From positions 32,001 to 96,000 of the forward strand of contig CBDCRW010000007.1 of NCBI GenBank assembly GCA_965221125.1: 64,000 bases of DNA, in the 5' to 3' direction. The notes beneath the pieces are model-generated. The model worked only from the letters and a program-made list of their open reading frames with translations. It searched no databases and was not told the origin of the DNA. The DNA comes from Alphaproteobacteria bacterium. Lineage in GTDB: Bacteria; Pseudomonadota; Alphaproteobacteria; UBA828. Below are positions 24,510 to 48,815 of this stretch, piece after piece. Position 1 is the stretch's first letter. Every line of letters begins with the position of its first letter. The position numbers and the translations under genes were made by a program.

Positions 24510-24522
24510 GGGCACTCCCCTC

Positions 24523-29549: not shown

Positions 29550-30572
29550 ATGAAGTTCCAGCGAGTAATGATCGTCGCCATGGCGGGAGCGGTGCTGACG
29601 CTCAATGGATGTATCGGTGGGCATGAGGATGAAGCCGGACCGCTGCCACCGGTCGAAATCCCCGCGCTCACGCCCGAGCCCCAACCGTTCCAGACCGGGA
29701 CGTCCTTCTCCGATGGCGTACTCAGTATCAGTGTGCCGACCTCTGACGGCCGGATCCGCACCCTCGATACCGTCCGACATTTGGAAGGAACGTGGGGACG
29801 ATTTCTCCCTCGTCCCGTCCAACCCAATCATTCCAACCGTGAATGGATACTGGTGGACAATCACTACGACGGTCGGGTGTTCCTCTACGCCCTCGTCTCA
29901 TGGGACAACGCCGACCCAACCGATTACCTTGCGGCGGGATGGTGGCTGATCTACCCGCCGGATGTCCCCGTTTGGGCGTTCGAGGCCGCCACTCGCGGGG
30001 TCTTTCTCGATGGCCCGGAACTCGATCCGGCCAACCCGCCCGACCTCCCTCTCGCGGGCACGGCTACCTATGTCGGTGGGATGGGCGGTCTATACACGTA
30101 CAACTATGGACGGGCGTGGAGCGACTTGGCCGGGTCCACGGAGGTCACGGAGTTTGCGGGGCCAGTCTCGTTGACCGCCGACTTCGATGGGAACCGCCTC
30201 ACCGGGTGCCTTGGATGTCCTGGGCCGATCGAAACCGCACCCGGTCGCCATCTCGCTCCAGCCGTGCCGTGGGGGGCGGACGATCCGGCGGCGTTGCCGG
30301 CCGAGTACGATGTGCGCTTTGAAGCCTCGATTGGCGCAGGCGGGGCCTTCGAGGATACCACCGTCACCGTGGCGCATCCCGACCGCACCATCGTGAGCAG
30401 CGCTGGGACGTGGCGAGGACAGTTCTCAAACGTGCCGGATGTGGATGGCAATCCCCGCCGTGTAGTCGGCTCGAGCGATGTGCTGTTCGCCGAAGACGAC
30501 GGCTCGCATGGGCGCTTTACGGGCATCTTCGACGCGCTGACACCCGCGACGGTCACGCCACCTGAGCGTTAG
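29550..30572 (+). CDS. Lipoprotein type A, TbpB-like beta-barrel C-terminal domain
   Basis: Lipobox LNGC; DYLAAGWWL, LPLAGTATYVGGMGGLY, SLTADF, GTWRGQFS. Confidence 0.8.
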   Translation: MKFQRVMIVAMAGAVLTLNGCIGGHEDEAGPLPPVEIPALTPEPQPFQTGTSFSDGVLSISVPTSDGRIRTLDTVRHLEGTWGRFLPRPVQPNHSNREWILVDNHYDGRVFLYALVSWDNADPTDYLAAGWWLIYPPDVPVWAFEAATRGVFLDGPELDPANPPDLPLAGTATYVGGMGGLYTYNYGRAWSDLAGSTEVTEFAGPVSLTADFDGNRLTGCLGCPGPIETAPGRHLAPAVPWGADDPAALPAEYDVRFEASIGAGGAFEDTTVTVAHPDRTIVSSAGTWRGQFSNVPDVDGNPRRVVGSSDVLFAEDDGSHGRFTGIFDALTPATVTPPER

Positions 30573-30659
30573 ATCTGGCCAACGCCCTGCCGCCATCAGG
30601 CCGGCGAGCAGGACGATCCAGCCGGTGCCGGCGCAGAGGCGGCACCGCATCACCAAGCG

Positions 30660-30767
30660 CCGTCCCGGCCCAGCAGACTGCTCAGGCAGTGCGCTCTTCA
30701 GGGAGTTGCATCCCGGAGCGGTCGACGGGAAGGATGGCCAGTCGGGATGCTGCCAGACCCACGTCAT
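30660..30767 (-). pseudogene. Remnant of Fic-family (DUF4172) N-terminus
   Basis: MTWVWQHPDWPSF motif then loss of frame. Confidence 0.4.
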
Positions 30768-30816
30768 GGGCGATAGAAGCGCCGCCTGTCGCTCGTTCCA
30801 GGCGCGCTCCCCGGCA

Positions 30817-32013
30817 TCACGCAGGCCCGCTCCGGTCACTCCCGCCCGGCATGATATCGGCGAAGATGCTGGCAGCCACCAGGGCCGCGGATTCCTTCAC
30901 CGAGTCCCGCGCCAGGTGCGCATACCGCGAGGTGGTCTGTATCTTGCGGTGACCCAGAAGCTTGCCGATCATCGTGAGGTCCTCGCCAAGCGCCAGGGCG
31001 CGCGACGCGAAGCTGTGACGCAGGTCATGAAGCCGCACGTCGTCGAGATCGGCGCGCTCCCTCACGCGATACCAGTAGTAGGCAATGTGCTTCTGCCGCT
31101 CGCCGGTCTCACGGCCCGCGATCACCCAGGGGTTGTCCGCAAGGCGCGGCAGCCCGGCCAGAACACGCGCCGCCGCCGGCGACAGCGGCACGATGCGAGG
31201 ACCGGTCTTGGAGTCGCGAAGCTGGATCTCGTTCCGGTGCAGCGCCACGTCGTCCCAGAGAAGCGTCAGCACCTCGCCGGACCGGCATCCGGTCAGCATC
31301 AGGAGCTTGATCGCCGCAGCCGCGTGAACCGGAACCCGGCCCTCGGCCTCGAGATCTTCCAGGGCCTGACCGAGACGGCGGAACTCGTCCTCGGTCAGAA
31401 AGCGCTCCAGCCGTCTCGTCGGGTTGCGCGTCACGAAGCGGCAGGGGTTGCTGCCGGCAGGCAGCAGGCCCCACGCCTCCGCCCGGTTCAGCATCCGCGA
31501 CAGCGCGCCCACCGTGTCGTTCGCAGCCACCGGCGTCTTGCGCAGGCGGTAGTGGAGCTCGGCAACGTGCTTGCGGTCGAGCTCGGCGATCGGCACCTTG
31601 CCCAGCTTCGGCAGGATGTGCCGCTCGATCGATTGCCTGTAGCCCTTGACCGTGTTCGGCTTGCAGCGAACCGCCACGTGCTCGCGGAGGTATCTATCCG
31701 CAAGCTCGGCTACCGTCGGCCCGCCGGCTGCGTCCCGCCCGGCCCCCGGCTCATCGCCCGCCTCGATGCGGGTGAGAACCACGGCGCCCTCCTGGCGCGC
31801 CTCGTCGGCAGAGATCACCCCGTGCCGGCCGATCGAGATCCGCTTCAGGCCCCGCGGGCCCTTGCGCTGCACCATATAGCTCTTGCACCCGTTGGGATAG
31901 ACCCGGACCCCGAAGCCCGGAAGCTCCCGGTCCCAGCACATGAACTCCTTCTCACCGGGCGTCAGTGCGTCGACCACCCGGTTGGACAGCGATCTCTTTT
32001 TCAGTCGCGGCAT
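30817..32013 (-). CDS. Tyrosine integrase with Arm-DNA-binding domain (subtype B)
   Basis: WDRELPGFGVRV, LTGCRSGE, DSKTG, LHDLRHSFAS, LLGHRKIQTTSRY. Confidence 0.93.
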   Translation of the reverse strand: MPRLKKRSLSNRVVDALTPGEKEFMCWDRELPGFGVRVYPNGCKSYMVQRKGPRGLKRISIGRHGVISADEARQEGAVVLTRIEAGDEPGAGRDAAGGPTVAELADRYLREHVAVRCKPNTVKGYRQSIERHILPKLGKVPIAELDRKHVAELHYRLRKTPVAANDTVGALSRMLNRAEAWGLLPAGSNPCRFVTRNPTRRLERFLTEDEFRRLGQALEDLEAEGRVPVHAAAAIKLLMLTGCRSGEVLTLLWDDVALHRNEIQLRDSKTGPRIVPLSPAAARVLAGLPRLADNPWVIAGRETGERQKHIAYYWYRVRERADLDDVRLHDLRHSFASRALALGEDLTMIGKLLGHRKIQTTSRYAHLARDSVKESAALVAASIFADIMPGGSDRSGPA

Positions 32014-32031
32014 GTTCCAGTCCTCCGTCCT

Positions 32032-33258
32032 TTACGCCGCCTCCGCCGACGACATGCAGCCGGCTACGTCCTGGGTGGCACCCTCCGTGCGCAGGATGTC
32101 GTCCTCGATGCTGCCGCCCACGCGGGCCACGGCAACTTTCTCCGCCTCCTGCGACAGGTGCGCGTACCGCGCCGTGCTGCTCACGTCCGTGTGGCCGAGA
32201 AGACGGCCGATCATCGGCAGCTGAAGACCCAGAGCCAGGGCGCGCGAGGCAAAGCTGTGACGCAGGTCATGAATGCGCACGTCCTCGACCTCTGCCTTCT
32301 CCCGCACCCGGTGCCAGTGGCTGGTCAGCGTCGCCAGATGGCGGTTGGGCTTGCCCCCTGTGATCACCCAGGGGCTGCGCCTCACCCGCTTGATCCCCGC
32401 CAGGACCTCCAGCACGGCAGGCGTCAGCGGCACCATCCGCGCACCGGTCTTCGCATCGCGCAGGCGAATCTCGCCGGCCTTGCGGTCGATGTCGCTCCAC
32501 CTGAGCGTCTGTATCTCCCCGAGCCGGCACCCCGTCAGCATCAGAAGCCGCAGCGCCGCCGCAGCCCTCGCCGACACCGGGCCCTCGGCCTCAAGCTCGC
32601 ATAGCGCCTCGCCCACCCTGCGGTACTCGTCCTCGGTGAGGAAGCGCTCGCGGCGACCCTCCTTGTAGCGCAGAACGAACCGGCACGGGTTGCCGCCGGG
32701 GGACGCCAGACCCCACGCCTCCGCCAACGAGAACATCTTCGACAGCACCATCAGCGCCCGGTTCGCAGCGCGCGGCGTCTCCCGCAGGCCATAGTGCAGT
32801 GCTTCGACCTCGGCACGCCCCACCTTGTCCAGGGACATCGCGCCCAGCGCCGGCAGGATGTGGTTCCTGAGCGAGCCCTTGTAGATGCCCTGCGTGTGGG
32901 CGTTGCAGTGCACCGCGACATGGGCCTCGAGGTAGCGCTCGGCCAGTTGGGCGACGGTGAGCACAGGCTCGGACTCCGCCTTCGCCGGGTCCTCGCCCTT
33001 CTTGATGCGGGCGATGGCCGCAGCAGCCTTCTTGCGCGCCTGATCGGGGGTAAGATCGCCGTGGCGTCCGAGCGAGACGCGCCTGATGCCCACCGGCCCG
33101 CGGCACTGCGCGACATAGATCTTGGCGCCTGAGGGGTAGACCCTGACGCCGAAGCCGGGCAGCTCCTTGTCCCAGAAGGTGGCGTCCTTCTTCTCGACGG
33201 CGAGCGCGTCGACGGTGCGCTTCGAGATCGAGAGTTCGCTTCGTTTAGGCATCGTCAA
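32032..33258 (-). CDS. Tyrosine integrase with Arm-DNA-binding domain (subtype A)
   Basis: WDKELPGFGVRV, LTGCRLGE, IHDLRHSFAS, LLGHTDVSSTARY. Confidence 0.93.
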   Translation of the reverse strand: MTMPKRSELSISKRTVDALAVEKKDATFWDKELPGFGVRVYPSGAKIYVAQCRGPVGIRRVSLGRHGDLTPDQARKKAAAAIARIKKGEDPAKAESEPVLTVAQLAERYLEAHVAVHCNAHTQGIYKGSLRNHILPALGAMSLDKVGRAEVEALHYGLRETPRAANRALMVLSKMFSLAEAWGLASPGGNPCRFVLRYKEGRRERFLTEDEYRRVGEALCELEAEGPVSARAAAALRLLMLTGCRLGEIQTLRWSDIDRKAGEIRLRDAKTGARMVPLTPAVLEVLAGIKRVRRSPWVITGGKPNRHLATLTSHWHRVREKAEVEDVRIHDLRHSFASRALALGLQLPMIGRLLGHTDVSSTARYAHLSQEAEKVAVARVGGSIEDDILRTEGATQDVAGCMSSAEAA

Positions 33259-33639
33259 GCTCCGCGTTCATCATACCTTCGTTCGCCGGGTGGCGCAGTC
33301 ACCGGGGGCCTGAGCAGCCGTGCGCCGCCTCGCCAAGAACAGCCCGTCCAGGTCCTGTCCTCACGGCCATCACCCCCCTGTCACCCGAGGACCGAATCCC
33401 GGCCTCCGGCGGCAAATTCGGGGTGGGCGAAATCGGCCGAATTTACCGTCATCACTTCGGTAATCCCCGACATCAAACCCCAGCGTATTGGATCGTACAT
33501 CTGACATATCGTAGAGGCATGTGCGCGGATCGTCAACCCACTGTGACAACAACAGTTATCGTACTCCTACGTAGCTCTGCGTAGGTCTGCGTAGGTCTGA
33601 CGGCGAAAGTGGGGAAAACGCTACACCGTACTTTTACAA

Positions 33640-33714
33640 GAGGAGAGCCTCGAAGCCATGAAGAAGACGAAGCTGACTCGCAGCTTGCTGGCGGCGTTCT
33701 CGATCGTCGCCCTC
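33640..33714 (+). repeat. 75-bp leader (RBS plus signal peptide) inverted-repeated at 38647-38721
   Basis: 72/75 identical by manual alignment. Confidence 0.9.
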
Positions 33715-35172
33715 ACGGCCGTCATGTACGGCTGCACCCACAGCAGTGACAATCCGCCGGCGACGGAGATGGAACAGACGCCGGCCGAGCAGATTGCCGC
33801 GCTTCAGGCGCAGATCAATACCCTGCGGGCGGAACTTGGGCTGGATCCGATCGACATCGACGACCTGACCGGCAGCGTGGCTACCCTCACGCAGCAGGTG
33901 GCCGATCTTCAGAAGCAGATCGACGACGCGCAGGACGCCGAGGACAAGGCTGCCGCTGCGGCTGCCGCCAAGGACGCTGTGGCGTTGTTCGACGGTATCA
34001 CCGAAACCACCAGTGACCTGAGTGTTGCAGTCAGCGCTGTTACCGACAAACACGGCGGTGGCATGGCTTCGCTCACGGCCACGGCCTTGGTTCCCGGTAT
34101 CGCTGGTGACGACACGGTGAAATCCGCTGAGCCCATGCTGGGCATGTGGCAGGGCACGATGCTCACCGATTCCGTTCCCGCCATTCCTAGCACCGCCACC
34201 AATGCGGGCACCAGCAGCACCGTGGTCGTCTACACGGACATCGCGGCACCGAAAGCGGTCCCCTTTGGCGACGTGCACACGCTCGACGCGAACGGGAACT
34301 TTGCAATTGTCGCTGCTGCCGACGCAAACCCTCACGTAGGGCTGATTTCTGCGTCCGCGTTCGAGCACACCGGCCGAATGACTCATGATCCCGATGAGGG
34401 CGACGCCAATGAGACTATCCGCGTCAGGGGCATGTTCAACGGGGCGGCGGGTGAATACCGTTGCGCTGAGGGCGGCACGACGGGCACGTGCGCGTCCATA
34501 GAGTCGTCAGCTGGTGTCAGGCTCGTGGGCACGTGGGTCTTCGATCCCGATTCCGGCGCCATGGCCATGATGGTCGACCCATCCTTCGCCTATTTCGGCT
34601 GGTGGCTGAACAAGGGCGGCACTGCAGGTGTCGAGGCTGGCGTGTTCCACGGCGTAACGGACGGTACCGGAGACGACGAGTTGCTCGGTACGGTCACTGA
34701 GGCCGACTTTACCGCGTTGGGTGGCACGGCCACTTATAGTGGTTCAGCGGCTGGCAAGTACGCTCTGAAGCCGAGCCTCTCCGCCGCCTCCGGTGGCCAC
34801 TGGACGGCCGATGCGACCCTGACCGCCGACTTCGGGAGCGAGACTGCTAACGGAATGATCTCCGGCATGGTCGAAAACTTCATGGCCGGCGGCGAGATGA
34901 TGGACTGGAGCGTCTCCCTTGGCGAGACGTCCTTTACTGACGCGACGGGTGCGTTCGACAGCACTGTTGACACTGCTGGCTCCGAGGTTGCCGATGACGA
35001 TGTGGTCTGGACCATCGGCGGGGTTGCCGGAGCGGAATCCGGGTCATGGTCGGGCGGTCTCCGCGCGGGAGGCGACAACAATGTGCCGACACTGGCCACG
35101 GGCGTGTTCTCCGCAACCCACGGCACAGTCGGCCACATCATGGGCGCGTTCGGCGCACACCTCGACGAGTAG
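33658..35172 (+). CDS. Lipoprotein type B, TbpB-like surface lipoprotein with coiled-coil stalk
   Basis: Lipobox MYGC; FAYFGWWL, GTATYSGSAAGKY, ATLTADFG, ISGMVENF, GHIMGAFGA terminal strand. Confidence 0.82.
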   Translation: MKKTKLTRSLLAAFSIVALTAVMYGCTHSSDNPPATEMEQTPAEQIAALQAQINTLRAELGLDPIDIDDLTGSVATLTQQVADLQKQIDDAQDAEDKAAAAAAAKDAVALFDGITETTSDLSVAVSAVTDKHGGGMASLTATALVPGIAGDDTVKSAEPMLGMWQGTMLTDSVPAIPSTATNAGTSSTVVVYTDIAAPKAVPFGDVHTLDANGNFAIVAAADANPHVGLISASAFEHTGRMTHDPDEGDANETIRVRGMFNGAAGEYRCAEGGTTGTCASIESSAGVRLVGTWVFDPDSGAMAMMVDPSFAYFGWWLNKGGTAGVEAGVFHGVTDGTGDDELLGTVTEADFTALGGTATYSGSAAGKYALKPSLSAASGGHWTADATLTADFGSETANGMISGMVENFMAGGEMMDWSVSLGETSFTDATGAFDSTVDTAGSEVADDDVVWTIGGVAGAESGSWSGGLRAGGDNNVPTLATGVFSATHGTVGHIMGAFGAHLDE

Positions 35173-35193
35173 CCACACTTCGAACTTGTTGCT

Positions 35194-35226
35194 GGGCGGC
35201 GGCCTTCGGTCGCCGCCCTTTTTCTT
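35194..35226 (+). terminator. Rho-independent terminator of lipoprotein B
   Basis: GGGCGGCGGC-CTTCG-GTCGCCGCCC followed by TTTTTCTT. Confidence 0.85.
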
Positions 35227-35313
35227 GCTCTGTCCGCCGGGCCACAGTCCCCCCGTCCGTCCTCGTTTCCCTTTCCCGTCCCGCTCCACGCTTAAGGCCC
35301 GGCGAGCGCACCC

Positions 35314-35949
35314 CTACCGATGTCGCGGCTGCGGCAGGCCCGCCAGCGACTCCAACGACCGCACCAGCCGCACCAGCTCGAACTGCCGGCCGATGCCCTG
35401 CTTGGCAAAAATGTTCTTCATGTGCCAGCGGATCGTGTTCTCCGTGCGCCCGCTCGCCCGCGCGATGTCGCGCACGGTTTTGCCCTCGGCCAGCCACACC
35501 GCCACGCGGCTCTCCATCGGCGTGAGACCGAAGCTCGCCGCCACGAGCGCCGGATCGATCCGCGTCCGGCTTGTCGGGTCGATCACCAGCACGAGCGCGG
35601 CGACGCGGTGCGCGCGCATGTCCGTGCCCCCTTCGTCCACTGGGCTCACGTGCAGTACGAGCCCCGGCAGGTCGAGCGTGCGCCTCACCATCATCGAGCC
35701 GCCGGCGCCCTGGCCGCCGCAGCACGGCAGCGCACGCGCCAGCAGCGCCTGAAGCGCGACGTCGTCCGCCGGCGCGCGGGCGTGGAGGGAGCCGCCTCGG
35801 TCGGACAGGCCGTCGCCCCGTCGCAGCAGGTCGCTGGCGTGGTCGCTCGCCGCGACGACGCGGCCGCGCCGGTCCAGCTGGATCACGCCGGACCGGGTGC
35901 CGCCGAGCAGCACGGCCGGGATGCGCTCGAGCGCGTCCCGTCGGCTCAC
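35314..35949 (-). CDS. LuxR-type HTH regulator, internally deleted relative to paralog at 49380
   Basis: GVIQLDRRGRVV PAS-like segment; LTPMESRVAVWLAEGKTVRDIA...TIRWHMKNIFAK HTH. Confidence 0.75.
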   Translation of the reverse strand: MSRRDALERIPAVLLGGTRSGVIQLDRRGRVVAASDHASDLLRRGDGLSDRGGSLHARAPADDVALQALLARALPCCGGQGAGGSMMVRRTLDLPGLVLHVSPVDEGGTDMRAHRVAALVLVIDPTSRTRIDPALVAASFGLTPMESRVAVWLAEGKTVRDIARASGRTENTIRWHMKNIFAKQGIGRQFELVRLVRSLESLAGLPQPRHR

Positions 35950-36291
35950 GACGGCGTTCCCGTTCCCGCTGGCTGCAAGAGCCCACCTCGTCGCTCCTGA
36001 GCGGAATGCCTCCCTCATTCCGCTCGCCGTGTTGCAGCGGACGCATCGCCGGCACCCGTCACTCCATGCAGACGTCCATGCCCGAATTGAAACGCTCCTC
36101 CTGGATGAAGCAGGCGGACGAGGGCCTGGGCAGGCCGGTGGGCGAATGCCGCCAACCCGTTGCGGACCGGCGGTTGACGCGCGATGCGCTTGCCCAAACC
36201 CGTTTCGGCAATCGTTAGGCCGAACGCGTACCCCACCGGGATTGGGGGCTTCACCGGGCGCGTGCCTCCCTAGACTTCATCCGCTGCGCGC

Positions 36292-36951: not shown

Positions 36952-38703
36952 CTAGTCGTCCTGTATCCGGGCACCGAAGGCGCCAAGCGCGTGCCCGTTG
37001 ACGAAGTGGGCATCGAAAGTACCGCTCACGGAGGTCGGCGCATCGGTCTCCGTGGTAGCCGCGTCCTCAATACCGTGGAGCTGACCGGCCCAGGTTCCTG
37101 CAGCGCCGTCGCCGCCGGCGCTCGTCCCCATCGTCACACCGGTTATGGCACCGGTGCCTTCGGTGATGTTCTGGAGGTCATCCATGTCGTCATCGGTGGT
37201 GTCGCTATCCGGACCTCTGTTCAGCATGACCACCCAGCTCGAATCGATCGGGTCGCCGTTCATGTCCATGAAGTTGGAGATCGTCCCGCTGATCGAGTTT
37301 GTATTTCTTGCAGCTACGTTCTCACCGCCGAAGCTCGCCGTCAGTTTGGCTTGGGCGGTGAACTGCCCGCCGCGCAACGGTATCTGCGTGCCGTCCGAAC
37401 CGAAGCTCTTGATCATGTAGAGACCCGTTGCCGGGCCGGCGTAGTCGGCCGTGCCGACAACACCGGTGGTGGGACGATTCGCGACGCTGCTTTCGGCAAA
37501 GGCGAGGACGGAGTACGTCAGTTCGCCGTCATCGTTGTTCTCTTCGTGCAGCCAGTAACCGAAGGTGAGGTAGTCGTCGTCGATTTCCACGCCGGCGACC
37601 ATGTAGGGGTCGGCACCCGTCGCCTGCGCGGTCGGCGTGAAGGTCCACGTGCCACCGAGGGATGATAGGTTGCCGTCCTTATCGGAGCCGACCGAGCACG
37701 TGCCCGTGCACGCATATGTGCCGGGAACGCCGTGGAACATGCCCATGATCGAGGGTTCGGCCTCGTTGACGTCAGTAGTAGCCGCGTTGTCGGTGTACTC
37801 GATCATTTGATGCGCTGCCGTCAACCCATGAGCGAAATCGATCAGAGAGCGGGCGCCGGCATTCACCGTACCGGCCAGCGTAAGCACTCCGCTGGCAGCG
37901 CTAGCTACACCGCGCCACGCGGCGTGGCCAGTGGGAACGCCAGCGTCTGCGTAGTACGTGCTGTATTCGACGGAATCGTTGGCAGCCCGGTCCGTGTAGG
38001 CGACGGCCGTGTCCATCGAGAACTCGTCCGTGTTCTCGGTGTCGGCGTCGTCTTCCTTCATCCGCGTGTAAGCAGAACCGGCCCACCCGTCGATTGAGGC
38101 AATCGCCATGTCCGACTCGGCGAACATGTCGTCCTCCGCCACCACGCCGGCAGTAGCGGGCAGCGTGGTCGTGAGCTTCCCGTGATTAACGTCGAAGTTG
38201 AAGGGCAATTGATCGCCAGTGGTGCCGCTGTCGGCATCCGCCCTGGTGCTGTCAGGGCCGATCGCCATGGCGATGCGCATGGCCTCCGCCGCGATCTCCT
38301 CGTCCGTGGGACCCGGAGGAGGAGGCGTGTAGTCGGCCGTGTGGATGGTGCCCGTCACCGTTACTGTATCGTCGTCATTGATGGTGACGCGGCAGGGCCC
38401 CATGGCGCAGGTCAGGTTCACACCCCCGACACTGACCGTCGCCCCCATTTCGTGGTCCACCCCCGCGAGACCTTCGGCATCTGCGAAAGCGGCCGCCAGG
38501 GCAGCGTCGACCGAATACGTGCCGGGCGTGACGGCCTGACCGCCGGTCACACCCGCCAGGGTCAGGTTGCCGTCGACGGTGGGCGTTTCCGTCGTCGGCG
38601 TCGTGGCGTCGTCGCTGCTGTGCAGGCAGCCGGACAGGACGACCGAGAGGGCGACGATCGAGCACGCCGCCAGCAAACTGCGAGTCAGCTTCGTCTTCTT
38701 CAT
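36952..38703 (-). CDS. Lipoprotein type B', TbpB-like surface lipoprotein
   Basis: Same MKKTKLTRSLLAA leader, lipobox LSGC; DYLTFGYWL, GTADYAGPATGLY, ISGTISNF, GHALGAFGA. Confidence 0.82.
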   Translation of the reverse strand: MKKTKLTRSLLAACSIVALSVVLSGCLHSSDDATTPTTETPTVDGNLTLAGVTGGQAVTPGTYSVDAALAAAFADAEGLAGVDHEMGATVSVGGVNLTCAMGPCRVTINDDDTVTVTGTIHTADYTPPPPGPTDEEIAAEAMRIAMAIGPDSTRADADSGTTGDQLPFNFDVNHGKLTTTLPATAGVVAEDDMFAESDMAIASIDGWAGSAYTRMKEDDADTENTDEFSMDTAVAYTDRAANDSVEYSTYYADAGVPTGHAAWRGVASAASGVLTLAGTVNAGARSLIDFAHGLTAAHQMIEYTDNAATTDVNEAEPSIMGMFHGVPGTYACTGTCSVGSDKDGNLSSLGGTWTFTPTAQATGADPYMVAGVEIDDDYLTFGYWLHEENNDDGELTYSVLAFAESSVANRPTTGVVGTADYAGPATGLYMIKSFGSDGTQIPLRGGQFTAQAKLTASFGGENVAARNTNSISGTISNFMDMNGDPIDSSWVVMLNRGPDSDTTDDDMDDLQNITEGTGAITGVTMGTSAGGDGAAGTWAGQLHGIEDAATTETDAPTSVSGTFDAHFVNGHALGAFGARIQDD

Positions 38704-38721
38704 GGCTCCGAGGCTCTCCTC
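38647..38721 (-). repeat. Second copy of 75-bp lipoprotein leader
   Basis: Reverse complement of 33640-33714. Confidence 0.9.
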
Positions 38722-39003
38722 ATTCTGAAGAGGCCTCGTGGGCGGCCTTGAGTCGCCGCGAGCACGGGACTTGTTCCGCAGATCGGCCTAGAATTGGCCG
38801 CGCAACACCACGGTAAACCTCTCCAACACCATCGAAATCAGAGGCGCCGGACATGCGCTGGGGTTCAGGGGCCCGAATGCCGGGTGCTTACGGGCGCGGA
38901 CGGGTGATTCCGCCCGCTTGCGCATTGAAGCCGAGTCGACTCGCCGTGTTGACGAGATTCGCGCGCAGGTTCGGCCCTGCCGCGCTCGTTGGACGAGACG
39001 ATC

Positions 39004-41323: not shown

Positions 41324-42364
41324 CTAGGCGTTGGCGGAACCGGGCTCCGGGAACCGCGGGGCCTGCGGCCGACTGCTGCCGTTGGCGGCGGCGGCCGCCG
41401 CCCGCTTGTCCGCTGCGCCTGCGACGACGCTGTAGCCGCCCTCGGCGTTGCGCGCGACGCGACCCTCCTGGACGAGCTTTTGCAAGATTACGCCGACGGT
41501 CTTGTGCCGGGTCGCGGCGCGTTCCCGGATCTGGCGTTGCGAGAGCGGCGCCCCGGCGTCGGCGAGCGCCTTGAGAACGCGGCATTCGGGTGTTTCGGGC
41601 TGAGGCGCCCCGCCGCCGGCCGTGGGCGGCTGGCGCAGCCGGAAGGAGGGCTCCTCTCCGTCTTCCTTGAGCTCGATCTCGATGTCGTCGAGACCGCGTG
41701 CGGCGCGATGCTCGACGGTCATGAGGGTCTGCCGGTCCCGGCGGCGCAGGTAGAGGTTCGAGTCCCCCCAGGCGTGCAGCTCACTGCTGCCCCGCAGGGC
41801 CTGCCCCGGCCTCGTGGCCCCGCTCTTGCGGGCGTGGTGGACGAGGAGGACGGCGGTCTCGAAGCGGCGTTGCAGGTCGCGCAGGAAGCCGAGGATCGGG
41901 GCGACGTCCGCAACCGTGTTCTCGTCCACGCCGTGCAGGCGGACCAGGGGGTCGAGGACCACGAGGCGCGGTGCGATGCGCTCCACGGTCTGCTGCAGGC
42001 GGCGGCGGTCGTCGAGATGGTCGAGGCGCAGTGTGGGCACGTCGATGACGGCGATGTCGAGGGTCTCGAAGCGGGCGCCTGCGGCGCGGGCGATCCCCTG
42101 CAGGCGCTTGCGCACGAGGTGGCCGGCGTCTTCTGCGGCGAACAGCAGGACCGGGCCAGGCCGGGCCGGGGCGAAGTGCCGCAGGCATGGGACGCCGGCG
42201 GCGACTGCGACCGCGAGGTCCAGCGCCAGGATGGACTTGCCGCACTTCGGCTCGCCGCCGACGATGCCGACGGCCTGCTCGCCCCATAGCGTGTCCACCA
42301 GCCATTGCTGCTCGCGCGGCCGCTCCTCCAGCTCGATCGGGGCGCGGGTCGGGAAGCCGGTCAT
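41324..42364 (-). CDS. RecA/AAA_25-like ATPase with C-terminal wHTH
   Basis: WLVDTLW, Walker A GEPKCGKS, LFAAED, VVLDPL, LVHHARK, LRGSSELHAWGD. Confidence 0.85.
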   Translation of the reverse strand: MTGFPTRAPIELEERPREQQWLVDTLWGEQAVGIVGGEPKCGKSILALDLAVAVAAGVPCLRHFAPARPGPVLLFAAEDAGHLVRKRLQGIARAAGARFETLDIAVIDVPTLRLDHLDDRRRLQQTVERIAPRLVVLDPLVRLHGVDENTVADVAPILGFLRDLQRRFETAVLLVHHARKSGATRPGQALRGSSELHAWGDSNLYLRRRDRQTLMTVEHRAARGLDDIEIELKEDGEEPSFRLRQPPTAGGGAPQPETPECRVLKALADAGAPLSQRQIRERAATRHKTVGVILQKLVQEGRVARNAEGGYSVVAGAADKRAAAAAANGSSRPQAPRFPEPGSANA

Positions 42365-43164
42365 GGCCGCAGTTCCTCGAGCGCGTGCTGCAGGTGGTCG
42401 GCACTGACGGTCCTCGCCTCGTCGAGAGCGGCGGCGGAGAGCGCGTAGTGGGCGATGCGGTTGATCTGGCGCGGCAGGCCGCGCGCGCCCTGGAACAGGG
42501 CCTCGACGGCGGGCTCTTCGAACAGCGGCAGTTCGCATCCCGCGAGCCTGAGGCGGTGCTTGATGTAAGCGTCGACCTCGTCGCGGTCGAGACCGCTCAG
42601 GTGGTGGCGGACGACGAGGCGCTGGCTGAGGGATTCGTGCATGGCCATGGCCAGGCGGCGCCTGAGCTCGGTCAGACCGACGAGGACGAGGCACAGGCGC
42701 TGCTCTGCATCCATGGCGAAGTTGGTGAGCAGGCGCAGGTCCTCAAGGACGTCGTTGCGCAGATGATGGGCCTCGTCGATGACGAGGACCGGCAGCTGCT
42801 TGGCCTCGGTGACGAGGCGGGAGATCTCGTTTCGGATGGCCTGATAGGCCGAGGCGCGGGAGCGCTCGATGGGCAGGCCGATCTCCCACGCGATCGCCTT
42901 GTACATGTCGAGCACGTTGCCCGTGGTCAGCGAGACGTAGTGGACCCGGTAGAGGCCTGGATGAAGCTGCGCGGTCAGATGCCGGCACACGGTGGTCTTG
43001 CCGGAGCCCACCTCGCCGGTGAGCAGGCCGATGCCGCGCAGGTCGATGAGGTGGCCGAGCCTGGCCTCGGCCTCGCGGCGCGCGTTGGACTCGAACAGCT
43101 CGTCGGTCTCTGCCGGGGTCTCGAAGGGCAGGCGGGTGAAGGCGAAGTGGCGCAGGTACATCAC
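42361..43164 (-). CDS. ExeA/MuB-like AAA ATPase
   Basis: YLRHFAFTRLPF, TGEVGSGKTT, VIDEAHHL, LVGLTEL, GLPRQINR. Confidence 0.9.
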   Translation of the reverse strand: MMYLRHFAFTRLPFETPAETDELFESNARREAEARLGHLIDLRGIGLLTGEVGSGKTTVCRHLTAQLHPGLYRVHYVSLTTGNVLDMYKAIAWEIGLPIERSRASAYQAIRNEISRLVTEAKQLPVLVIDEAHHLRNDVLEDLRLLTNFAMDAEQRLCLVLVGLTELRRRLAMAMHESLSQRLVVRHHLSGLDRDEVDAYIKHRLRLAGCELPLFEEPAVEALFQGARGLPRQINRIAHYALSAAALDEARTVSADHLQHALEELRP

Positions 43165-44489
43165 TCGTCCTCCTTCTTGTCCTTGAGGTTGCGCATGGCC
43201 AGCGGCGAGGGCGGAGGCTCGGGCGCCGGATCTTCGGCCTCGATCTCCCTGGCCGGGTAGGTGCGCCTGACGGCGGTATTGGCGTAGGCGTCGAGAGGGC
43301 TGGCCTTGCCGGCCGGCTTGCCGTCATGGACCACGTCGAGAGGGCGCGAGGGCGGCGCGGCCGGGTCGTAGCGCAGGATGACGTTCTGACCCACCAGGAG
43401 GGCGTCGACCTCGTAGACGCGGCCGTTCAGACTAACGGTGCGGTCCTTGTAGACACGGCGCCTGGCCTCGAAGAGGAACAGATCGTCGAGGTCCATGGTG
43501 GCGTCGGGATAGCGCACGCCGGCCGAGGCCAGCGCCCACTGCTCAAGCGGGGTGCGCCCCTCGTCGAGGCCACGATGCGGGCTGTTGTGATACTCCCCCT
43601 CGATCCAGGCCCAGAGGCTGCGGTTGAGCGCCTCCAGGCTGTCGACGTCATCGCCGAGGTGGCGGAGCCAGCCGGCCCGGAGGGTGCGGAAGAAGCGCTC
43701 GATCTTACCCTTTCCCGCTGGCTGGAACGCCCTTGCGTGAATCAACGCAACGCCGAGCCTGGCGCAGACCAGGGAGAGATGACGGGAGCGGTAGGCGCTT
43801 CCGTTGTCGACGTACAAGCGGGCCGGGAGGCCGCGCCGGATCAGCGCGTCCTTGAACACCGGCAGGAACGCCGCAGTGTTCTCCGCCATGGCGAAGGCGG
43901 CGAACGGGATGACGCGGGTGGCGTCGTCGATGAAGGCGATCAGGTAGGTCTTGCGCCGGGTTCGGCCGTGCCGGACCTTGGGTCCGTGCATGACGTCGCT
44001 CATCCACATCTCGCCGGCATGCCGGAAGGCGAAGCGGCGGCGATCCGCCCCGTCGGGCGGCTTCTTGTCGAACAGGCCCTCGCGGCTGAAGAGGCGGTGC
44101 ACGGTGGACGAGGCGAGCGGGTGGTCGATACCCTCCTCCTTGACCTTCTGGATGATGGCGCGAACCGACAATGCGTCGTTCTCGGTCTTCAGCGCGATGA
44201 GGCGCTCGGCGACCTCGGGCGGCAGCCGCCGGGGCTTCCCCCGGTCGGTGCGGGGCTTGGGGTAGAGCGCGTCGAAGCCGCCGTAGCGGTAGTCCTTGAT
44301 CCAGCGCCGCATGGTCTCGGCGGCGACCCGGGTCCTGGTGGTTCCGGGGATCGTGTAGGTCTTCTCGGCTTTGGCGCGCATCATCGCGCCGGCACCCGGT
44401 GCACCCACGGGCAGATGCACCAGATCGGCGATGACGTCGTATCGGAAGAGCGCGATCTGTTGGCGAAGGTCGTCGTCTGAGCTGTTCAT
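43161..44489 (-). CDS. DDE transposase (Mu/TnsB-like, with C-terminal Mu domain)
   Basis: IALFRY N-terminus, WMSDVMHG, FIDDATR, LYVDNGSAY, GKGKIERFFRT, YHNSPHRGL. Confidence 0.92.
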   Translation of the reverse strand: MNSSDDDLRQQIALFRYDVIADLVHLPVGAPGAGAMMRAKAEKTYTIPGTTRTRVAAETMRRWIKDYRYGGFDALYPKPRTDRGKPRRLPPEVAERLIALKTENDALSVRAIIQKVKEEGIDHPLASSTVHRLFSREGLFDKKPPDGADRRRFAFRHAGEMWMSDVMHGPKVRHGRTRRKTYLIAFIDDATRVIPFAAFAMAENTAAFLPVFKDALIRRGLPARLYVDNGSAYRSRHLSLVCARLGVALIHARAFQPAGKGKIERFFRTLRAGWLRHLGDDVDSLEALNRSLWAWIEGEYHNSPHRGLDEGRTPLEQWALASAGVRYPDATMDLDDLFLFEARRRVYKDRTVSLNGRVYEVDALLVGQNVILRYDPAAPPSRPLDVVHDGKPAGKASPLDAYANTAVRRTYPAREIEAEDPAPEPPPSPLAMRNLKDKKEDE

Positions 44490-44534
44490 GGTGCGATCCT
44501 CGTTCAGGGACTCCCTGGCCCCGGGATCGTCACG

Positions 44535-45170
44535 CTACGAACTCTCCGGCGGCGGGTCCGGCCCCGCCCGTTGTTGGAACTGCGGTTTGCGATTCCCCAC
44601 GTCGATGCCGTGGGGTTGGAAGCCCAGAGGCGCGGGTAGCGTCCGGAGCTGCCCGGCGACCAGGCCGCGCAGTTCCATCAACGCGCTGTCGCTCTTCAGA
44701 CGCTCGCGCACCGCGCTCATGGTGGGCGCGCAGCCCGCGAGCAGGTCGGGGATCAGGCCGATGACGCGCACAAGCGCGTCGTGCACAAGCTTCAGCCTGC
44801 GGCGGATCCAACGCACGGCGCCGGGAAGCTCGATGGCGTCCTCGTCCTCGGGGCAGCGCACCTCGTCCGCTGCCTCCTCCAGGCTGCCGGCCTCCTCCGC
44901 CACGACAACAACCGCTTCCAGCGCATCGAGCGTGCCCGGCAGCCGCGCCGCCAGACAGTCGGCCAGCAGGCCGATGGTCGTATGGCTCTCACGGCAATAC
45001 CAGCGAGGAACCCTTGCGCCGGGCGGGGTCTTCCGCTCGTAGGTGCCGTGGCTTGCCACAGAACATCCGCCGTGCGGGTGATTCGGGCAGCGCTCAAGCC
45101 TTGCGTCGCGCCACGCCTCGGTCTTAACGTATTCCTCGCTGGTGAGCCCCGTTTCGTAGCGAAGCTGCAC
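44535..45170 (-). CDS. Transposon-associated Cys/His protein (DUF6431-like)
   Basis: CPNHPHGGC...HGTYERK...RWYCRESHTT..LLADCL; first gene of the transposon. Confidence 0.7.
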   Translation of the reverse strand: MQLRYETGLTSEEYVKTEAWRDARLERCPNHPHGGCSVASHGTYERKTPPGARVPRWYCRESHTTIGLLADCLAARLPGTLDALEAVVVVAEEAGSLEEAADEVRCPEDEDAIELPGAVRWIRRRLKLVHDALVRVIGLIPDLLAGCAPTMSAVRERLKSDSALMELRGLVAGQLRTLPAPLGFQPHGIDVGNRKPQFQQRAGPDPPPESS

Positions 45171-46302
45171 CGGCCCTGGCCCGGCGGGAGTTCCGTCCCC
45201 CGGGCCTCTCTTTGTCGTTCAGTGAGAGGCCAAGATTACGGACGCTCCCCGCCGCCGCCAAGCTGTGGAGCCGTGGACGCGTCCTGCGGACCGATCGGCG
45301 TCCTGCGGACCGTGTGGACAGCCCGTGGACAAGCTGGCGCTTGCCCACCGCCTGACCACACTCGCCGATCTCGCGCCCACCGCTCCACAGCTTCAACAGC
45401 AATGAGGATTCTGCTGAGGATCAAAAAAATGCCGCAGGCAGCGTCCTTCCCGCACTCGGCCACCATCCCGGGAAATCCACCAACCAATCAAAGTGAGAAA
45501 AAAACCCGTGCTTCTATCCGGCTAGACCGGAAAACAACACGCGTGCTGGACGAGATGGAGGCGGAGGGGCGCATCTCTCCCCATGCGGCGGCGGCGCTGC
45601 GCCTGCTCATGCTCACCGGCTGCCGGCGCAACGAGATACTGACGCTCCGCTGGGAGGATGTGCGACTGGAGGCGCAGGAGCTGCATCTCAGCGACTCCAA
45701 GACCGGCCCGCGCACGGTCTCGCTCTCGCCCGGAGCGGCGGCGGTGCTGGCCGCGATGCCGCGCCTTCCCGGCAACCCCTGGGTGATCCCCGGCACGAAG
45801 CCGGGCGCCCGGCTCTCCAGCCTGTTCGGGCCCTGGCGGCGCGTGCGCGCCCGCGCCGGCCTCGACGACGTGCGCATCCACGACCTGCGCCACTCCTACG
45901 CCTCCCGCGCGCTGGCGCTGGGCGAGAGCCTGCCGGTGATCGCCAAGCTCCTCGGCCACGCCCGGATCCAGACCACCGCACGCTACACCCACCTCACGCG
46001 GGACGCCGTCAGGGATGCAGCCATTCGAGTCGCCGAGGGGATTGCGGAGGATATCCTTCGGGACAGAAGCCCCCAGCCTCCGCGGGCAGCCTTGCGCCGG
46101 AATGGCAGTGCGATCCCGCCTGGCGGGCGCATCGCGCCAGGCATCGATCGAGGTCTCGACGTTCGCGACCTGCGCTCCAACGATGTCAAAGCGTCGGTGA
46201 AGGCATCGGCTGCACGAGTCGCCGCCGAAATCGGGGATGACATTCTCCCGCCATGGACAGGTGGCGGCGGCTGCTTCGCGAGGTTGAGCGCGTCCGAGGG
46301 GC

Positions 46303-47325
46303 CTACCGCTCGGGCGGCTCGATCGTCTCGGGTGTCAGCGCATCGAAGATGCCCGTAAAGCGCCCATGCGAGCCGTCGTCTTCGGCAAACAGCACATCGG
46401 TCGAGCCGACCACGCGCCGGGGATTGCCATCCGCATCCGGCACGTTCGAGAACTGTCCTTGCCACGTCCCGGCGCTGCTCACGATGGTGCGGTCGGGATG
46501 GGCAACGCTAACGGTTGTATCCTCGAAGGCCCCGGTGGCGTCAAAGGATGCGGCAAAGTGGAGGTCGTAGTCGGCCGGCAACGCCGCGGGATCGGGGTCC
46601 CGCCAGGAGAGGATGGGATAGAGGTGCTGACCGGGCACGATCTCGATCGGCCCCAGGCACCCGAGGCACCCGATGAGGCGGTTCTGGTCGAAGTCGGCGA
46701 TTAGCGAGACTAGCCCGGTAAACTCCGTGATCTCGGTGGATCCGGCCAACTCGTCCCACGCCCGTCCGTAGCTGTACGTGTACAGGCCGCCCATCCCGCC
46801 GACATAGCTGGCCGTGCCCGTCAGCGGCAGGTCGGGCGGTTCGGCGGGGTTGAGCTCCGGACCGTCGAGAAAGACCCCGCGAGTGGCGGCCTCGAACTCC
46901 CGATGGGATACGTCCGGTGGATAGATCAGCCACCATCCCGCCGCAAGATAGTCGGCGGGGTCGGCATCGTTCCACGAGACGACGGCGTAGAGCAGAATCT
47001 TGCCGTCGTAGTGGTTTTCCGCGAGCAACCATTCGCGGCTGGAATGGCCGGGTTGGACGGGTCGGGGAAGGAAAAGCCCCCACGACCCTTCCCGGTGCCG
47101 GACGGAATCGAGAGTGCGGGTCCCACGGTCCGGGGTCGGCACGTCGATACTGAACACGCCATCGGCGAAGGTCGTCCCGGTCCGAAACGGTTGGGGCTCG
47201 GGCGTGAGCGTGGGTATCTCGACCGCTGGAAGCGGCTCGGCCTCATCTCCACCTCCGCCGATACACCCGCCGAGGGTCAGCACCGCTCCTGCAATGGCGA
47301 CGACGAGCACTCGCTGGAATTTCAT
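46303..47325 (-). CDS. Lipoprotein type A', paralog of 29550..30572
   Basis: Same length (340 aa), lipobox LGGC, long identical stretches such as DYLAAGWWLIYPPDV and FAEDDGSHGRFTGIFDALTP. Confidence 0.85.
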   Translation of the reverse strand: MKFQRVLVVAIAGAVLTLGGCIGGGGDEAEPLPAVEIPTLTPEPQPFRTGTTFADGVFSIDVPTPDRGTRTLDSVRHREGSWGLFLPRPVQPGHSSREWLLAENHYDGKILLYAVVSWNDADPADYLAAGWWLIYPPDVSHREFEAATRGVFLDGPELNPAEPPDLPLTGTASYVGGMGGLYTYSYGRAWDELAGSTEITEFTGLVSLIADFDQNRLIGCLGCLGPIEIVPGQHLYPILSWRDPDPAALPADYDLHFAASFDATGAFEDTTVSVAHPDRTIVSSAGTWQGQFSNVPDADGNPRRVVGSTDVLFAEDDGSHGRFTGIFDALTPETIEPPER

Positions 47326-47402
47326 CGGGTTCGCTCCCTGAAGACAATTCGACACTGGGGATCGCCATTATGCGGCTGTCCCGAAAGGGCGGGGGACGCG
47401 GG

Positions 47403-48815
47403 TCAGAACTGCTGCACGAAGCGAAGCTCGCCGCGGGTGCGCTGGAAGTCGTGGGCCTGGGCGTTGGTCTCGCGCTCCTCGTTCACCACCACCAGCTCCG
47501 GGCTGAAGCCGAAGACGGTAAAGCCCCGGTTGTGGACGGAGGCGCGGAGGCTCCTGGTGCGGTCCTGCCGCGCGCCGTTATCGGGCACGAACGGGAACCA
47601 GCCGGGCTCGTAGTCCGCCCAGCGCACCTCGGCGCCGGCGCCCACGGTGAAGCCCAGAGGCAGGATCACCGAGACGTCGGTGCCGAGCCAGCGGGTGCGA
47701 TGGCGCCTGGAGTCCCACTTCGGGCGCTGGCGGCCGTAGCCGCCGGAGAAGTCCAACCGCACGGTCGGATCCACCACCCAGGAGGCACGCAGCGCCACGT
47801 CCATGACCGGCCCGTCGAGGGCCGTCCGCGTGCGGTAGCGCCGCCCGTGCCAGGAGGCCTGGCCCGAGACCGTGACGAGCCGGTTGACGCGGTGGCCGAC
47901 CTCCAGGCGGACGCCGAGCTCGCGGTCGTCCGGCGCGGTGCCGACCCAACGCTGGCGGGCGCTGCCGAGGACGCTCAGATCGGTGTCCCTGTCGACGAGC
48001 CAGCGGGGCCCGAGATGGGTGCCGACGAAGAGCTGGTCGAAGACCGAGCGCTCGTACTCGCGGCGCGCGAACTCGGCGCCCGCGCGGATGCGGAGGTCGT
48101 CGAACACCGGGTAGTGGTACTCCGCGCCGCCCCAGAGCGAGACGCCGATGCCTGACGAGGTCAGCTCCTGCACGTTGCGCCGAAAGGGCAGGTCGAAGAT
48201 GTAGATGATGCGCTCCTCCGACGAGCCGCCGATGTTGCTGTCCGGCGCAAGGGCAGCGCCGGCGTTGAAGCGCCAGCGCCGGCGGGACTCGATGCTCGCG
48301 AGGAAGGTGCGGACGTTGGCGACGACCGCGTCCGGCGGGTCGGTCGCCAGCACGATCTCGAAGTGGCGCCGCGCGAGGTCGTCCTCGCCCATCAGGTAGA
48401 AGGCGCGGGCGAGCTCGAGGCGCACGCGGAGCAGCCGCGGGTCCTCGATCAGCATGGCGCGGAAGGCGGCGACCGCCTGGCTCAGCAGCGCCTCGCGGGT
48501 CTCAGGCGCCAGGTCGGGCTGCTGCTGCGCCGTCCCCACCGCAGCCAGGCCGTAGAGGAAGGCGACGTTGGCGTCGACCGCATCGCCCTGGAGCATCGGG
48601 GCCAGGATCACCAGCGCCTCGCCGAAGCGGCCCGCGTCGATCAGCGCGCGTGCGTCGCCCACGGTGCCCGCGGGGGGCGCATCGGGCGCTGCGGCTTCGT
48701 CGGCCGCTGCGGGCGCGGGCTGCGGCTCGCTCTCGTGCTGGTCGGCAAGCGCGGGCAGGGCAAGCGTGAGGCAGGCCGCGAGCAGGGCGGCGCGGCAGAT
48801 CGTCGTTGGGAGCAT
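47403..48815 (-). CDS. Slam-like surface lipoprotein assembly modifier (TPR plus DUF560 beta-barrel; type XI secretion)
   Basis: Signal peptide, TPR region RVRLELARAFYLMGEDDLARRHFE, LAPDSNIG barrel start, terminal ELRFVQQF; adjacent to TbpB-like lipoprotein. Confidence 0.8.
   Translation of the reverse strand: MLPTTICRAALLAACLTLALPALADQHESEPQPAPAAADEAAAPDAPPAGTVGDARALIDAGRFGEALVILAPMLQGDAVDANVAFLYGLAAVGTAQQQPDLAPETREALLSQAVAAFRAMLIEDPRLLRVRLELARAFYLMGEDDLARRHFEIVLATDPPDAVVANVRTFLASIESRRRWRFNAGAALAPDSNIGGSSEERIIYIFDLPFRRNVQELTSSGIGVSLWGGAEYHYPVFDDLRIRAGAEFARREYERSVFDQLFVGTHLGPRWLVDRDTDLSVLGSARQRWVGTAPDDRELGVRLEVGHRVNRLVTVSGQASWHGRRYRTRTALDGPVMDVALRASWVVDPTVRLDFSGGYGRQRPKWDSRRHRTRWLGTDVSVILPLGFTVGAGAEVRWADYEPGWFPFVPDNGARQDRTRSLRASVHNRGFTVFGFSPELVVVNEERETNAQAHDFQRTRGELRFVQQF

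Follow-up and report, generated by a model that had tools for sequence, protein, structure and literature searches.

Paired arm-type tyrosine integrases beside a conserved lipoprotein leader: a candidate cassette-exchange module for predicted type 11 secretion cargo

Why do pairs of tyrosine integrase genes stand among genes for surface lipoproteins, twice over and in mirror image? The question is raised by a 64,000-nucleotide stretch of DNA (the window) from a metagenome-assembled genome (MAG) of an alphaproteobacterium (GenBank GCA_965221125.1, contig CBDCRW010000007.1; G000 and C7 below). The window corresponds to C7:32001-96000, has ~68% G+C, and its gene calls are based on open reading frames (ORFs) and Pfam profile searches; positions are those of the window unless a contig (C3, C4, C5, C7) is named. 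The gene order is lipoA(+) intB(-) intA(-) lipoB(+) luxR(-) lipoB'(-) intA'(+) intB'(+) lipoA'(-) Slam(-), where the lipo genes encode TbpB-like lipoproteins, the int genes integrases, and Slam a predicted outer-membrane exporter of the type 11 secretion system (T11SS).

The original prediction, made from the sequence letters, had read the locus as a recombinase-driven system for shuffling surface-lipoprotein cassettes. Its gene order and strands are borne out by ORFs and Pfam, and the peptide motifs it quoted for both IntA and both IntB proteins are found in the sequences; it had missed the luxR gene between lipoB and lipoB' and the 4.6-kb transposon that splits intB'. To the proposed cassette system the present comparison adds signs of exchange at a defined site, the lipoprotein leader. 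The further claim that the integrase pair and both flanking lipoproteins form one conserved unit stands for the lipoB-type gene and falls for lipoA, a genome-specific insertion.

The leader and the conserved unit

Sequence comparison indicates that the conserved unit comprises a lipoB-type gene, a leader of ~105 bp at its 5' end, and the intA-intB pair. The leader, extending from -17 to ~+85, contains the ribosome-binding site, ATG, signal peptide and lipobox, and has a mean pairwise identity of 81-93% over 21 copies, falling to ~35% in either flank, where the copies are unalignable. The motif AGGAGAGCCTCGAAG just before the ATG is common even to the distant locus L061. In the window, nucleotide likeness between lipoB and lipoB' is confined to their 5' ends (135 nt, 84%), and their bodies are ~31% identical. 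Dyad symmetry within the leader, considered as a crossover core, was seen by eye, is not kept between lineages and was not used.

Whole-genome searches of the genus (21 genomes) located 52 copies of the leader, distributed over 15 genomes. Thirty-two of them sit 240-571 bp divergently upstream of an intA-type gene, four adjoin rpn (an Rpn/YhgA-like gene) at the far end of the integrase segment, 14 are orphans, and two have too little sequence to be judged. Five copies belong to G000, four beside intA genes and one at the rpn end. Eight of the nine TbpB-like genes of G000 lie in integrase modules; the exception, C3:435613, is also the only lipoB-type gene of this genome that has no leader. Consecutive leaders on the same contig, tallied from the census coordinates, are inverted in 11 of 12 cases at distances up to 15 kb and in 3 of 12 when further apart (one-sided Fisher p ~0.001, overstated by the kinship of the genomes). 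A recombinase gene thus stands beside a multigene family that shares a conserved site in inverted copies, the arrangement expected of an inversion system.

The bodies that follow the leader show signs of exchange. Among 210 pairs of leader copies, six combine integrase-side flanks 86-96% identical with unalignable bodies, two combine identical bodies with unrelated upstream flanks, and none has both flanks alike. Pair 1 of the window and locus L045, from another species, share DNA 94.6% identical from lipoB +84 through intA and intB (98-99% in protein between their integrases), and the bodies are 26% identical. Across the genus, 24 of 37 lipoprotein bodies have no partner at ≥60% identity, and two body clusters occur both beside integrases and as orphans. 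The module on C5 gives a similar picture by eye: judged from N-terminal sequences, its intB-side flank looks kept with L069 and its lipoprotein side differs. On the far side of pair 1 the leader is broken at about -8, where homology with L045 stops and L045 has a full inverted leader followed by lipoB. The same junction, at -8 and joined to foreign DNA, is present in L049 and on C4.

The spacer between leader and intA has features of its own. Of 18 such spacers, 11 contain 4-7 TACG[CA] motifs on the same strand, many of them at exact 10-bp intervals, against a background of 1.1 per kb per strand. Nine of the 18 have, at a constant distance from the leader, two TGATGNCGG-like repeats 21 bp apart; the rest have one copy and, in one case, none. 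The pair-1 spacer (33259-33640) has both, with six TACG[CA] motifs, several of them 10 bp apart, and two TGATGNCGG-like repeats at the 21-bp distance. No TACG[CA] array was present in the two rpn-side spacers examined. Such a one-sided layout recalls the attL site of a prophage with its P' arm, or an attI site with direct repeats. The sole consensus promoter-like site in the pair-1 spacer, TTGACG-17-TACGAT at 33536-33508 (-), faces intA.

lipoA was rejected as a member of the unit. The insertion that holds it spans ~29533-30591, where five related loci (L045, L046, L047, L049, L050) have ~29 bp instead, and 16 of its 20 homologues in the genus have no integrase within ~9 kb. A lipoA-less form is also represented in reads: of 23 sequencing runs found, four were examined as short Logan contigs, and a contig of run X22 lacks 29524-30591. 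Similarity between lipoA and lipoA' is limited to the stretch from about -18 through the stop codon, and no repeats were seen at the ends of the lipoA cassette.

The original prediction had proposed a search for the same association in other genomes, and it recurs in many, within one integrase clade. Scanning one genome per species with an IntA/IntB alignment brought up 409 relatives, and the analysis continued with the 80 best loci; they were chosen via the integrase, and nearness to it is partly built into this set, unlike the leader census. Hidden Markov models built from our own alignments were run on these loci (E≤1e-5, 10-kb flanks). Where identity to IntA is ≥63%, the lipoB C-terminal domain is found in 23 of 35 loci and Slam in 20 of 35, within 10 kb, compared with 3 of 45 and 0 of 45 for the remaining loci; seven of the 12 close loci that lack the lipoB domain have <3 kb of upstream sequence. 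The linkage holds down to ~63-70% integrase identity and across different leader sequences, and the architecture is present in at least 15 genomes.

Several of these loci repeat the arrangement closely. A second mirror module in G000 (C7:14519-30607) reads Slam(-) lipoB(-) leader, intA intB, a HigBA insert, a helicase-like gene, rpn(-), and leader lipoB(+) Slam(+). The same leader-flanked central segment is found in L045, L046 and the metagenome contig L125, and rpn recurs on the far side of the pair in many loci. In L061, L063 and L066 the pair is flanked by inverted lipoprotein 5' ends with different signal peptides; L061 and L063 come from MAGs titled Gammaproteobacteria and Pseudomonadales. 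L061 has three copies ordered (+)(-), integrase pair, (+), as in the window, whose two pairs have the convergent lipoB and lipoB' between them. A metagenome scan with IntA matched 25 loci, one of them close (L125, 90%), and no strain-level variants were found among the 25.

Integrases, lipoproteins and exporter

The integrases belong to the tyrosine recombinases. PF00589 scores 77-93 bits (cut-off 27.1) in intA, intB, intA' and the C-terminal part of intB', and the arm-binding domain PF13356 scores 36-53 bits (cut-off 27) in intA, intB, intA' and the N-terminal part of intB'. Residues R245, K270, H330, R333, H356 and Y365, which we take to be the catalytic R-K-H-R-H/W-Y set, are invariant in all six aligned A and B proteins. 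More specific models score far below their cut-offs: 20-24 bits for NCBIfam invertases (221-222), 69-75 for XerC/XerD (330-335) and 18.6 for GmtY (340). An integron was rejected on the same grounds (integron-integrase models 53-56 bits, cut-off 265), and the cassette 3' ends, compared for lipoA only, have no repeated site.

G000 has 11 tandem integrase pairs and additional single genes. A FastTree phylogeny of 162 full-length integrases from the kept loci and G000 (60 tandem pairs and 42 singles) places the first and second genes of the pairs in two sister super-clades with matching sub-structure, so the pair has co-diverged; this suggests that IntA and IntB act together. Lipoprotein-linked integrases form one well-supported A clade (37 rows) and matching B clades. 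The two pairs of the window belong to two sub-lineages, each with closer kin in other genomes than in the mirror half. Outside the lipoprotein-linked clade, pairs adjoin a TrwC relaxase (L106; Pfam E=1e-80) or phoB (L090, G000 C4), and the pair therefore derives from the integration module of mobilisable or conjugative elements. An island of the P4-like, tRNA-targeting type was considered and rejected: no tRNA gene lies within ~3 kb of an integrase in any of 50 loci scanned, and between the tRNA-Ser of the window (53974-54049) and the closest integrase gene there are 7.6 kb.

Relatives of the pair at 55-87% identity also occur in MAGs titled Chloroflexota, Bryobacterales, Binatia, Gemmatimonadetes and Deltaproteobacteria (L073, L108, L115, L116, L122, L124 and others), which points to broad horizontal transfer or else to short contigs that were wrongly binned. 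Beside a distant pair of G000 (C4:444538-448015, 35-40% identity to intA/intB), a lipoA-like gene follows within ~240 bp.

The lipoproteins have a lipoprotein signal peptide, recognised with a lipobox pattern of our own, with lipobox cysteines C21 and C26 invariant in the alignments. AlphaFold2 models of lipoA and lipoB (predicted local distance difference test, pLDDT, 80.5 and 75.4) show a handle and a C-terminal barrel. The best Foldseek matches in the PDB are HphA, fHbp and the TbpB C-lobe for lipoA, and fHbp, TbpB C-lobe, HpuA, LbpB, NHBA and PmSLP-1 for lipoB; for the two together, the top of the search holds known Slam cargo only, hemophilin included. E-values are 5e-6 to 1e-3 and template modelling (TM) scores on the target 0.4-0.54. 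In their models, lipoA and lipoB thus fold like TbpB, fHbp and HphA. No lipoprotein of the window matches a Pfam TbpB family, and NCBIfam NF041636 (slam_lipo) gives lipoB 21.1 bits (E=2.9e-4) against a cut-off of 80 and does not match lipoA or lipoB'. Since the profile scores are below their cut-offs, the likeness to TbpB is at the level of fold only.

The product of the gene at 47403-48947 is a Slam/T11SS outer-membrane protein by its profiles, and hence a predicted exporter, with PF04575 at 60.9 bits (cut-off 22) and TPR_19 at 34.7 bits; the Slam-specific TPR model is sub-cut-off. Three Slam genes are present in G000, all on C7. Within the window only lipoA' adjoins Slam; elsewhere Slam follows lipoB-type genes in other loci.

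Features of the locus and surrounding mobile DNA

The features are collected in Table 1. The arms of the inverted arrangement are 81% identical in DNA for lipoA/lipoA' (1037 nt), 72% for intA/intA' (377 nt) and 71-74% for intB/intB'. The short luxR-type regulator between lipoB and lipoB' is a paralogue of the C-terminal part of the larger LuxR-type gene beyond Slam (inverted repeat, 77%), and genes similar to it are present in L058 and L072.

Table 1. Positions of features in the window (nucleotides of the whole stretch; a dot marks a region without strand).
Feature	Position	Strand	Description
Truncated leader site	25340..25396	-	Upstream part of lipoB leader, cut ~8 nt before ATG, fused to 10.8-kb repeated segment
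rpn, Rpn/YhgA-like (Transposase_31) gene	28314..29378	+	Pfam PF04754 E=1.2e-17; NCBIfam Rpn family sub-cut-off
lipoA	29550..30572	+	Lipobox; predicted TbpB/fHbp/HphA-fold lipoprotein; gene-sized insertion between rpn and intB
intB, B-type tyrosine integrase, pair 1	30817..32013	-	Pfam Phage_integrase E=2.9e-23 and Arm-DNA-bind_3; B clade of tree
intA, A-type tyrosine integrase, pair 1	32032..33258	-	Pfam; A clade of tree
Pair-1 integrase-side intergenic region	33259..33640	.	TACG[CA] motifs, TGATGNCGG-like repeats, promoter-like site
Leader site 1	33641..33745	+	~105 bp at lipoB 5' end: ribosome-binding site, start codon, signal peptide, lipobox
lipoB	33658..35172	+	Lipoprotein: coiled-coil N-terminal part, then predicted TbpB-like handle and barrel
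Terminator-like hairpin after lipoB	35194-35218		
Short LuxR-type (GerE helix-turn-helix) regulator	35314..36018	-	Pfam GerE E=2.3e-8; between lipoB and lipoB'
Terminator-like hairpin after lipoB'	36887-36861		
lipoB'	36952..38703	-	Second lipoB-type lipoprotein; leader same as lipoB
Leader site 2	38611..38720	-	Inverted relative to leader site 1; Logan contigs break here
intA', A-type integrase, pair 2	38989..40257	+	Sub-lineage 2; 64% identical to intA
intB' N-terminal part	40254..40915	+	Pfam Arm-DNA-bind_3 and SAM-like domains
Transposon inside intB'	40916..45542	-	4,627 bp; AAA_25 ATPase, AAA_22/TniB-like ATPase, rve/Mu-C transposase
intB' C-terminal catalytic part	45543..46358	+	Pfam Phage_integrase E=2e-21; in frame with N-terminal part, transposon discounted
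lipoA'	46303..47325	-	78% protein identity to lipoA; downstream of Slam, same strand
Slam, predicted type 11 secretion outer-membrane protein	47403..48947	-	SlipAM PF04575 E=1.9e-16 and TPR
LuxR-type regulator with PAS-like region	49296..50531	+	Pfam

The original prediction had stated that no phage genes accompany the integrases, and none was seen; other mobile DNA is present, namely insertion sequences (IS), the transposon, the Rpn/YhgA-like gene and toxin-antitoxin pairs. A form of intB' free of the transposon is seen in run X22, in a contig that passes from 40915 straight to 45543 with a single additional base. The transposon has TGTTGTTT-type inverted ends and a sub-cut-off score for NCBIfam IS481-like, ~140 nt of its right end occurs at 100% identity in ~20 places of the genome, and Logan contig depth over it is 10-20x that of the flanks. 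The IS at 25886-27991, with a transposase combining a DruA-like N-terminal region and DDE_Tnp_1, is missing at this place in L045 and L046, and its end is repeated exactly at many places of the genome. Beyond Slam and luxR, 50613-54049 encodes an N6/N4 DNA methylase whose C-terminal part is weakly Mrr-like, a DUF559 protein and tRNA-Ser(GGA), followed by an IS1595 transposase (54130-55146).

Larger repeats surround the modules. A 13.7-kb inverted repeat of 99.95-99.99% identity joins window 678-17242 (C7:32678-49242) to C7:1-13750; one arm has an extra 2.8-kb insertion, one is the start of the contig, and the two flank a 19-kb segment (C7:13751-32677) that holds the second mirror module. The arms have genes for another integrase, for a RecD-like helicase, and for Toprim and SLOG proteins, and no inverted repeats beyond the arms themselves were found at the ends of the segment. 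Two origins are conceivable for the repeat: a true duplication of recent date, or an assembly walk enabled by both orientations of the segment in the population. CTACG-type clusters were noted by eye just inside both segment ends (C7:13751-13830, 1-2 copies; C7:32598-32677, ~5 in 80 nt; background ~2 per kb, both strands) and resemble the integrase-side repeats. Copies at 99.9-100% identity also link window 14581-25396 to C4:1-10816 (99.9%) and window 50394-57204 to C5:1-6811. Each runs on into a different integrase pair, in C5 by way of a lipoB gene and leader, and three of the seven contigs begin in exact repeats abutting integrase modules, an indirect hint that alternative arrangements may coexist in the population.

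In the second mirror module a 1.9-kb insert follows intB (C7:20203-22434, equal to L036 7203-9434 and not in L125) and encodes HigB, HigA and a 292-aa protein. Its borders are formed by two directly repeated copies of a 167-bp stretch from the intB 3' end, 98% identical, and pieces of an intB 3' end are also found downstream of pairs in L048, L049, L059, L062 and L095. The intB 3' end may mark a second recombination site.

Mechanism, rival explanations and known systems

The locus may be read as two copies of a specialised recombination module, each with a co-evolving arm-type IntA/IntB pair placed 240-570 bp from a leader. The pair would recombine leader copies with each other, and where these are inverted the outcome would be inversion, re-joining the integrase-side upstream region, with any promoter there, to another mature-lipoprotein body, often with its own Slam. 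Over time cassettes would be shuffled and replaced, and within a population the surface lipoprotein that is made would be switched. That IntA and IntB recombine at the leader and so invert or exchange lipoprotein cassettes, with or without Slam, is in our estimate an even call; catalysis of the exchange by this pair, its joint action, the leader as the place of crossover and the switching of expression are suggested by the comparisons above.

Several observations weigh against this reading. Only 32 of the 52 leaders adjoin an integrase and 14 are orphans, and the genomes are kin and non-independent, so that the counts overstate the support. A 105-bp patch could also serve homologous recombination or gene conversion. 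Sub-lineage 2, pair 2 of the window included, has no TACGC arrays, and neither lipoB nor lipoB' of the window has Slam beside it. No consensus promoter was found for lipoB, and a switch working through a single promoter stays a conjecture. The Logan contigs end at the leader and yield no recombination product: 15 of 72 joints are listed, none of them strand-changing. Lipoprotein-free relatives beside TrwC relaxase or phoB behave as ordinary mobile elements.

The main rival explanation is an ordinary genomic island in which the pair is the integration module and the lipoprotein-Slam operons are cargo, the leader being shared through paralogy, selection on the signal peptide and RecA-dependent gene conversion, with the integrases not acting on it. 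Besides the sister clades next to TrwC relaxase (L106) or at a fixed site by phoB (L090, G000 C4), the richness of the region in IS elements, transposon, toxin-antitoxin genes and methylase fits such an island, as do the 14 leaders that have no integrase nearby and the co-occurrence of T11SS genes with mobile-island markers reported in the available portion of one source (10.1101/2024.09.26.615229). An island would be expected to look different in other respects: the modules are not bounded by direct repeats, 11 of the 12 leader pairs within 15 kb stand in inverted orientation, and the integrases of 50 loci have no tRNA gene within ~3 kb. Nor would it readily explain a leader-intA distance fixed at 240-571 bp in 32 cases, phased repeat arrays confined to the integrase side, a linkage that persists to ~63-70% integrase identity and across leader sequences, or the C5 flank that by eye (N-terminal sequences) looks kept with L069 on the intB side while the lipoprotein side differs. 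We consider the island unlikely, though it carries real weight.

In a related explanation the module is a selfish element for which the leader is the attachment site; on insertion it would repair the interrupted gene with the leader copy it brings along, and lipoprotein variation would be a by-product. Integration of this kind would leave direct, not inverted, repeats, and none was found bounding the module; nor was an empty site found that differs from an occupied one by the module alone. These points make such an element improbable, even though the leader with its one-sided array by the integrase resembles a prophage attL with P' arm and the window, C4 and L049 each have a leader that breaks off at -8 into foreign DNA. 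Restoration of a target gene has a precedent in dusA 5'-end islands, as described in the available part of PMC4482086. The original prediction had named a one-off inverted duplication or misassembly as the case that would refute it. An artefact, or a functionless one-off duplication, could be suspected in a MAG with 5.8% contamination, a 13.7-kb inverted repeat of 99.95-99.99% identity elsewhere on the contig and three contig starts in exact repeats. The arms of the locus are only 71-84% identical in DNA and are therefore neither a fold-back misassembly nor a recent duplication; each half, from its own integrase sub-lineage, is closer to other genomes than to its mirror half, Logan contigs of three runs match unique parts with 0 differences, and the architecture recurs in at least 15 genomes. 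This explanation is hardly credible.

Recombination between leaders, the reading preferred here, has parallels in several known systems. Site-specific inversion of surface lipoprotein genes is textbook knowledge for Mycoplasma, and the closest known loci are vpma/Xer1 of M. agalactiae, vsp/Mbr of M. bovis and vsa/HvsR of M. pulmonis. In vpma, the tyrosine recombinase sites lie in a conserved region from -1 to -72 upstream of each start codon, and inversions set the expressed gene (PMC2268961, available part). Like these loci, the present one has a lipoprotein multigene family by a tyrosine recombinase gene, here with a conserved patch starting just before the ATG, inverted copies and swapped bodies. 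It differs in its host, a Gram-negative Proteobacterium, and in its predicted Slam/T11SS export; in having, instead of one Xer-like enzyme, two co-evolving ~400-aa recombinases with arm-binding domains and phased repeats; in that each copy owns a ribosome-binding site and signal peptide, a single promoter being only conjectural; and in that copies spread over ~100-kb islands and cassettes can include the exporter gene.

In shufflons and in Campylobacter fetus, inversion between opposed repeats places different bodies behind the unchanging 5' part of a surface-protein gene. The R64 shufflon (Rci/pilV) uses sites of ~19 bp, its variable parts being C-terminal exons of one gene, and in C. fetus sapA a promoter-bearing segment lies between opposed cassettes with conserved 5' ends that undergo homologous recombination. 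The layout lipoB(-) leader, integrase segment, leader lipoB(+) resembles that of sapA; unlike in either system, the units exchanged would here be complete mature proteins, with or without Slam, and a dedicated integrase pair lies within the segment. Two tandem tyrosine recombinase genes by a surface-structure gene are also found in the type 1 fimbrial switch of Escherichia coli, where FimB and FimE control that gene by inversion; these proteins have ~200 aa and no arm domain and flip a 314-bp promoter element. Tyrosine recombinase genes that lie side by side, are inherited together and are presumed to act jointly are known as TnpA/TnpB of Tn554 and as XerC/XerD. The same is presumed for the recombinase-in-trio of GInt elements (PMC5385486, available part), which differ in having three genes and a fourth GInt gene that is missing here; here there are two, both with P4-type arm domains.

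With the Slam-adjacent operons of TbpB, LbpB, fHbp, HpuA and hemophilin/HphA (PMC5449769, PMC8406197, available parts), the locus shares the lipobox, handle and barrel, and a Slam gene beside some copies. Unlike them, it has a sub-cut-off slam_lipo score and no Pfam TbpB match, and the word integrase occurs 0 times in the available part of the T11SS cargo paper. The original prediction held the architecture to be undescribed; the literature searched, which did not cover the supplements of the T11SS papers and their possible neighbourhood tables, gave no link of Slam or T11SS to integrases or inversion. Programmed variation of surface lipoproteins by site-specific inversion was thus not found described there for Slam/T11SS cargo, nor with an arm-type integrase pair, and the association of a multi-recombinase pair with lipoproteins is new.

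Modules of this kind will tangle the assemblies of genomes that contain them. If the reading is true, it would yield a compact tool made of two recombinases with defined sites, possibly a directional one, T11SS biology would gain a natural hypervariable-cargo system, and mobile-element integrases would have been recruited for host gene control. More tentatively, and with somewhat less than even confidence, the locus may be a domesticated two-subunit "leader-exchange shufflon" for type 11 cargo, spreading between lineages, in which cassettes, sometimes with Slam, move between integrase-linked expression sites and orphans over ~100-kb islands, so that uncultured marine Proteobacteria, which may be host-associated, would vary their surface in a programmed way.

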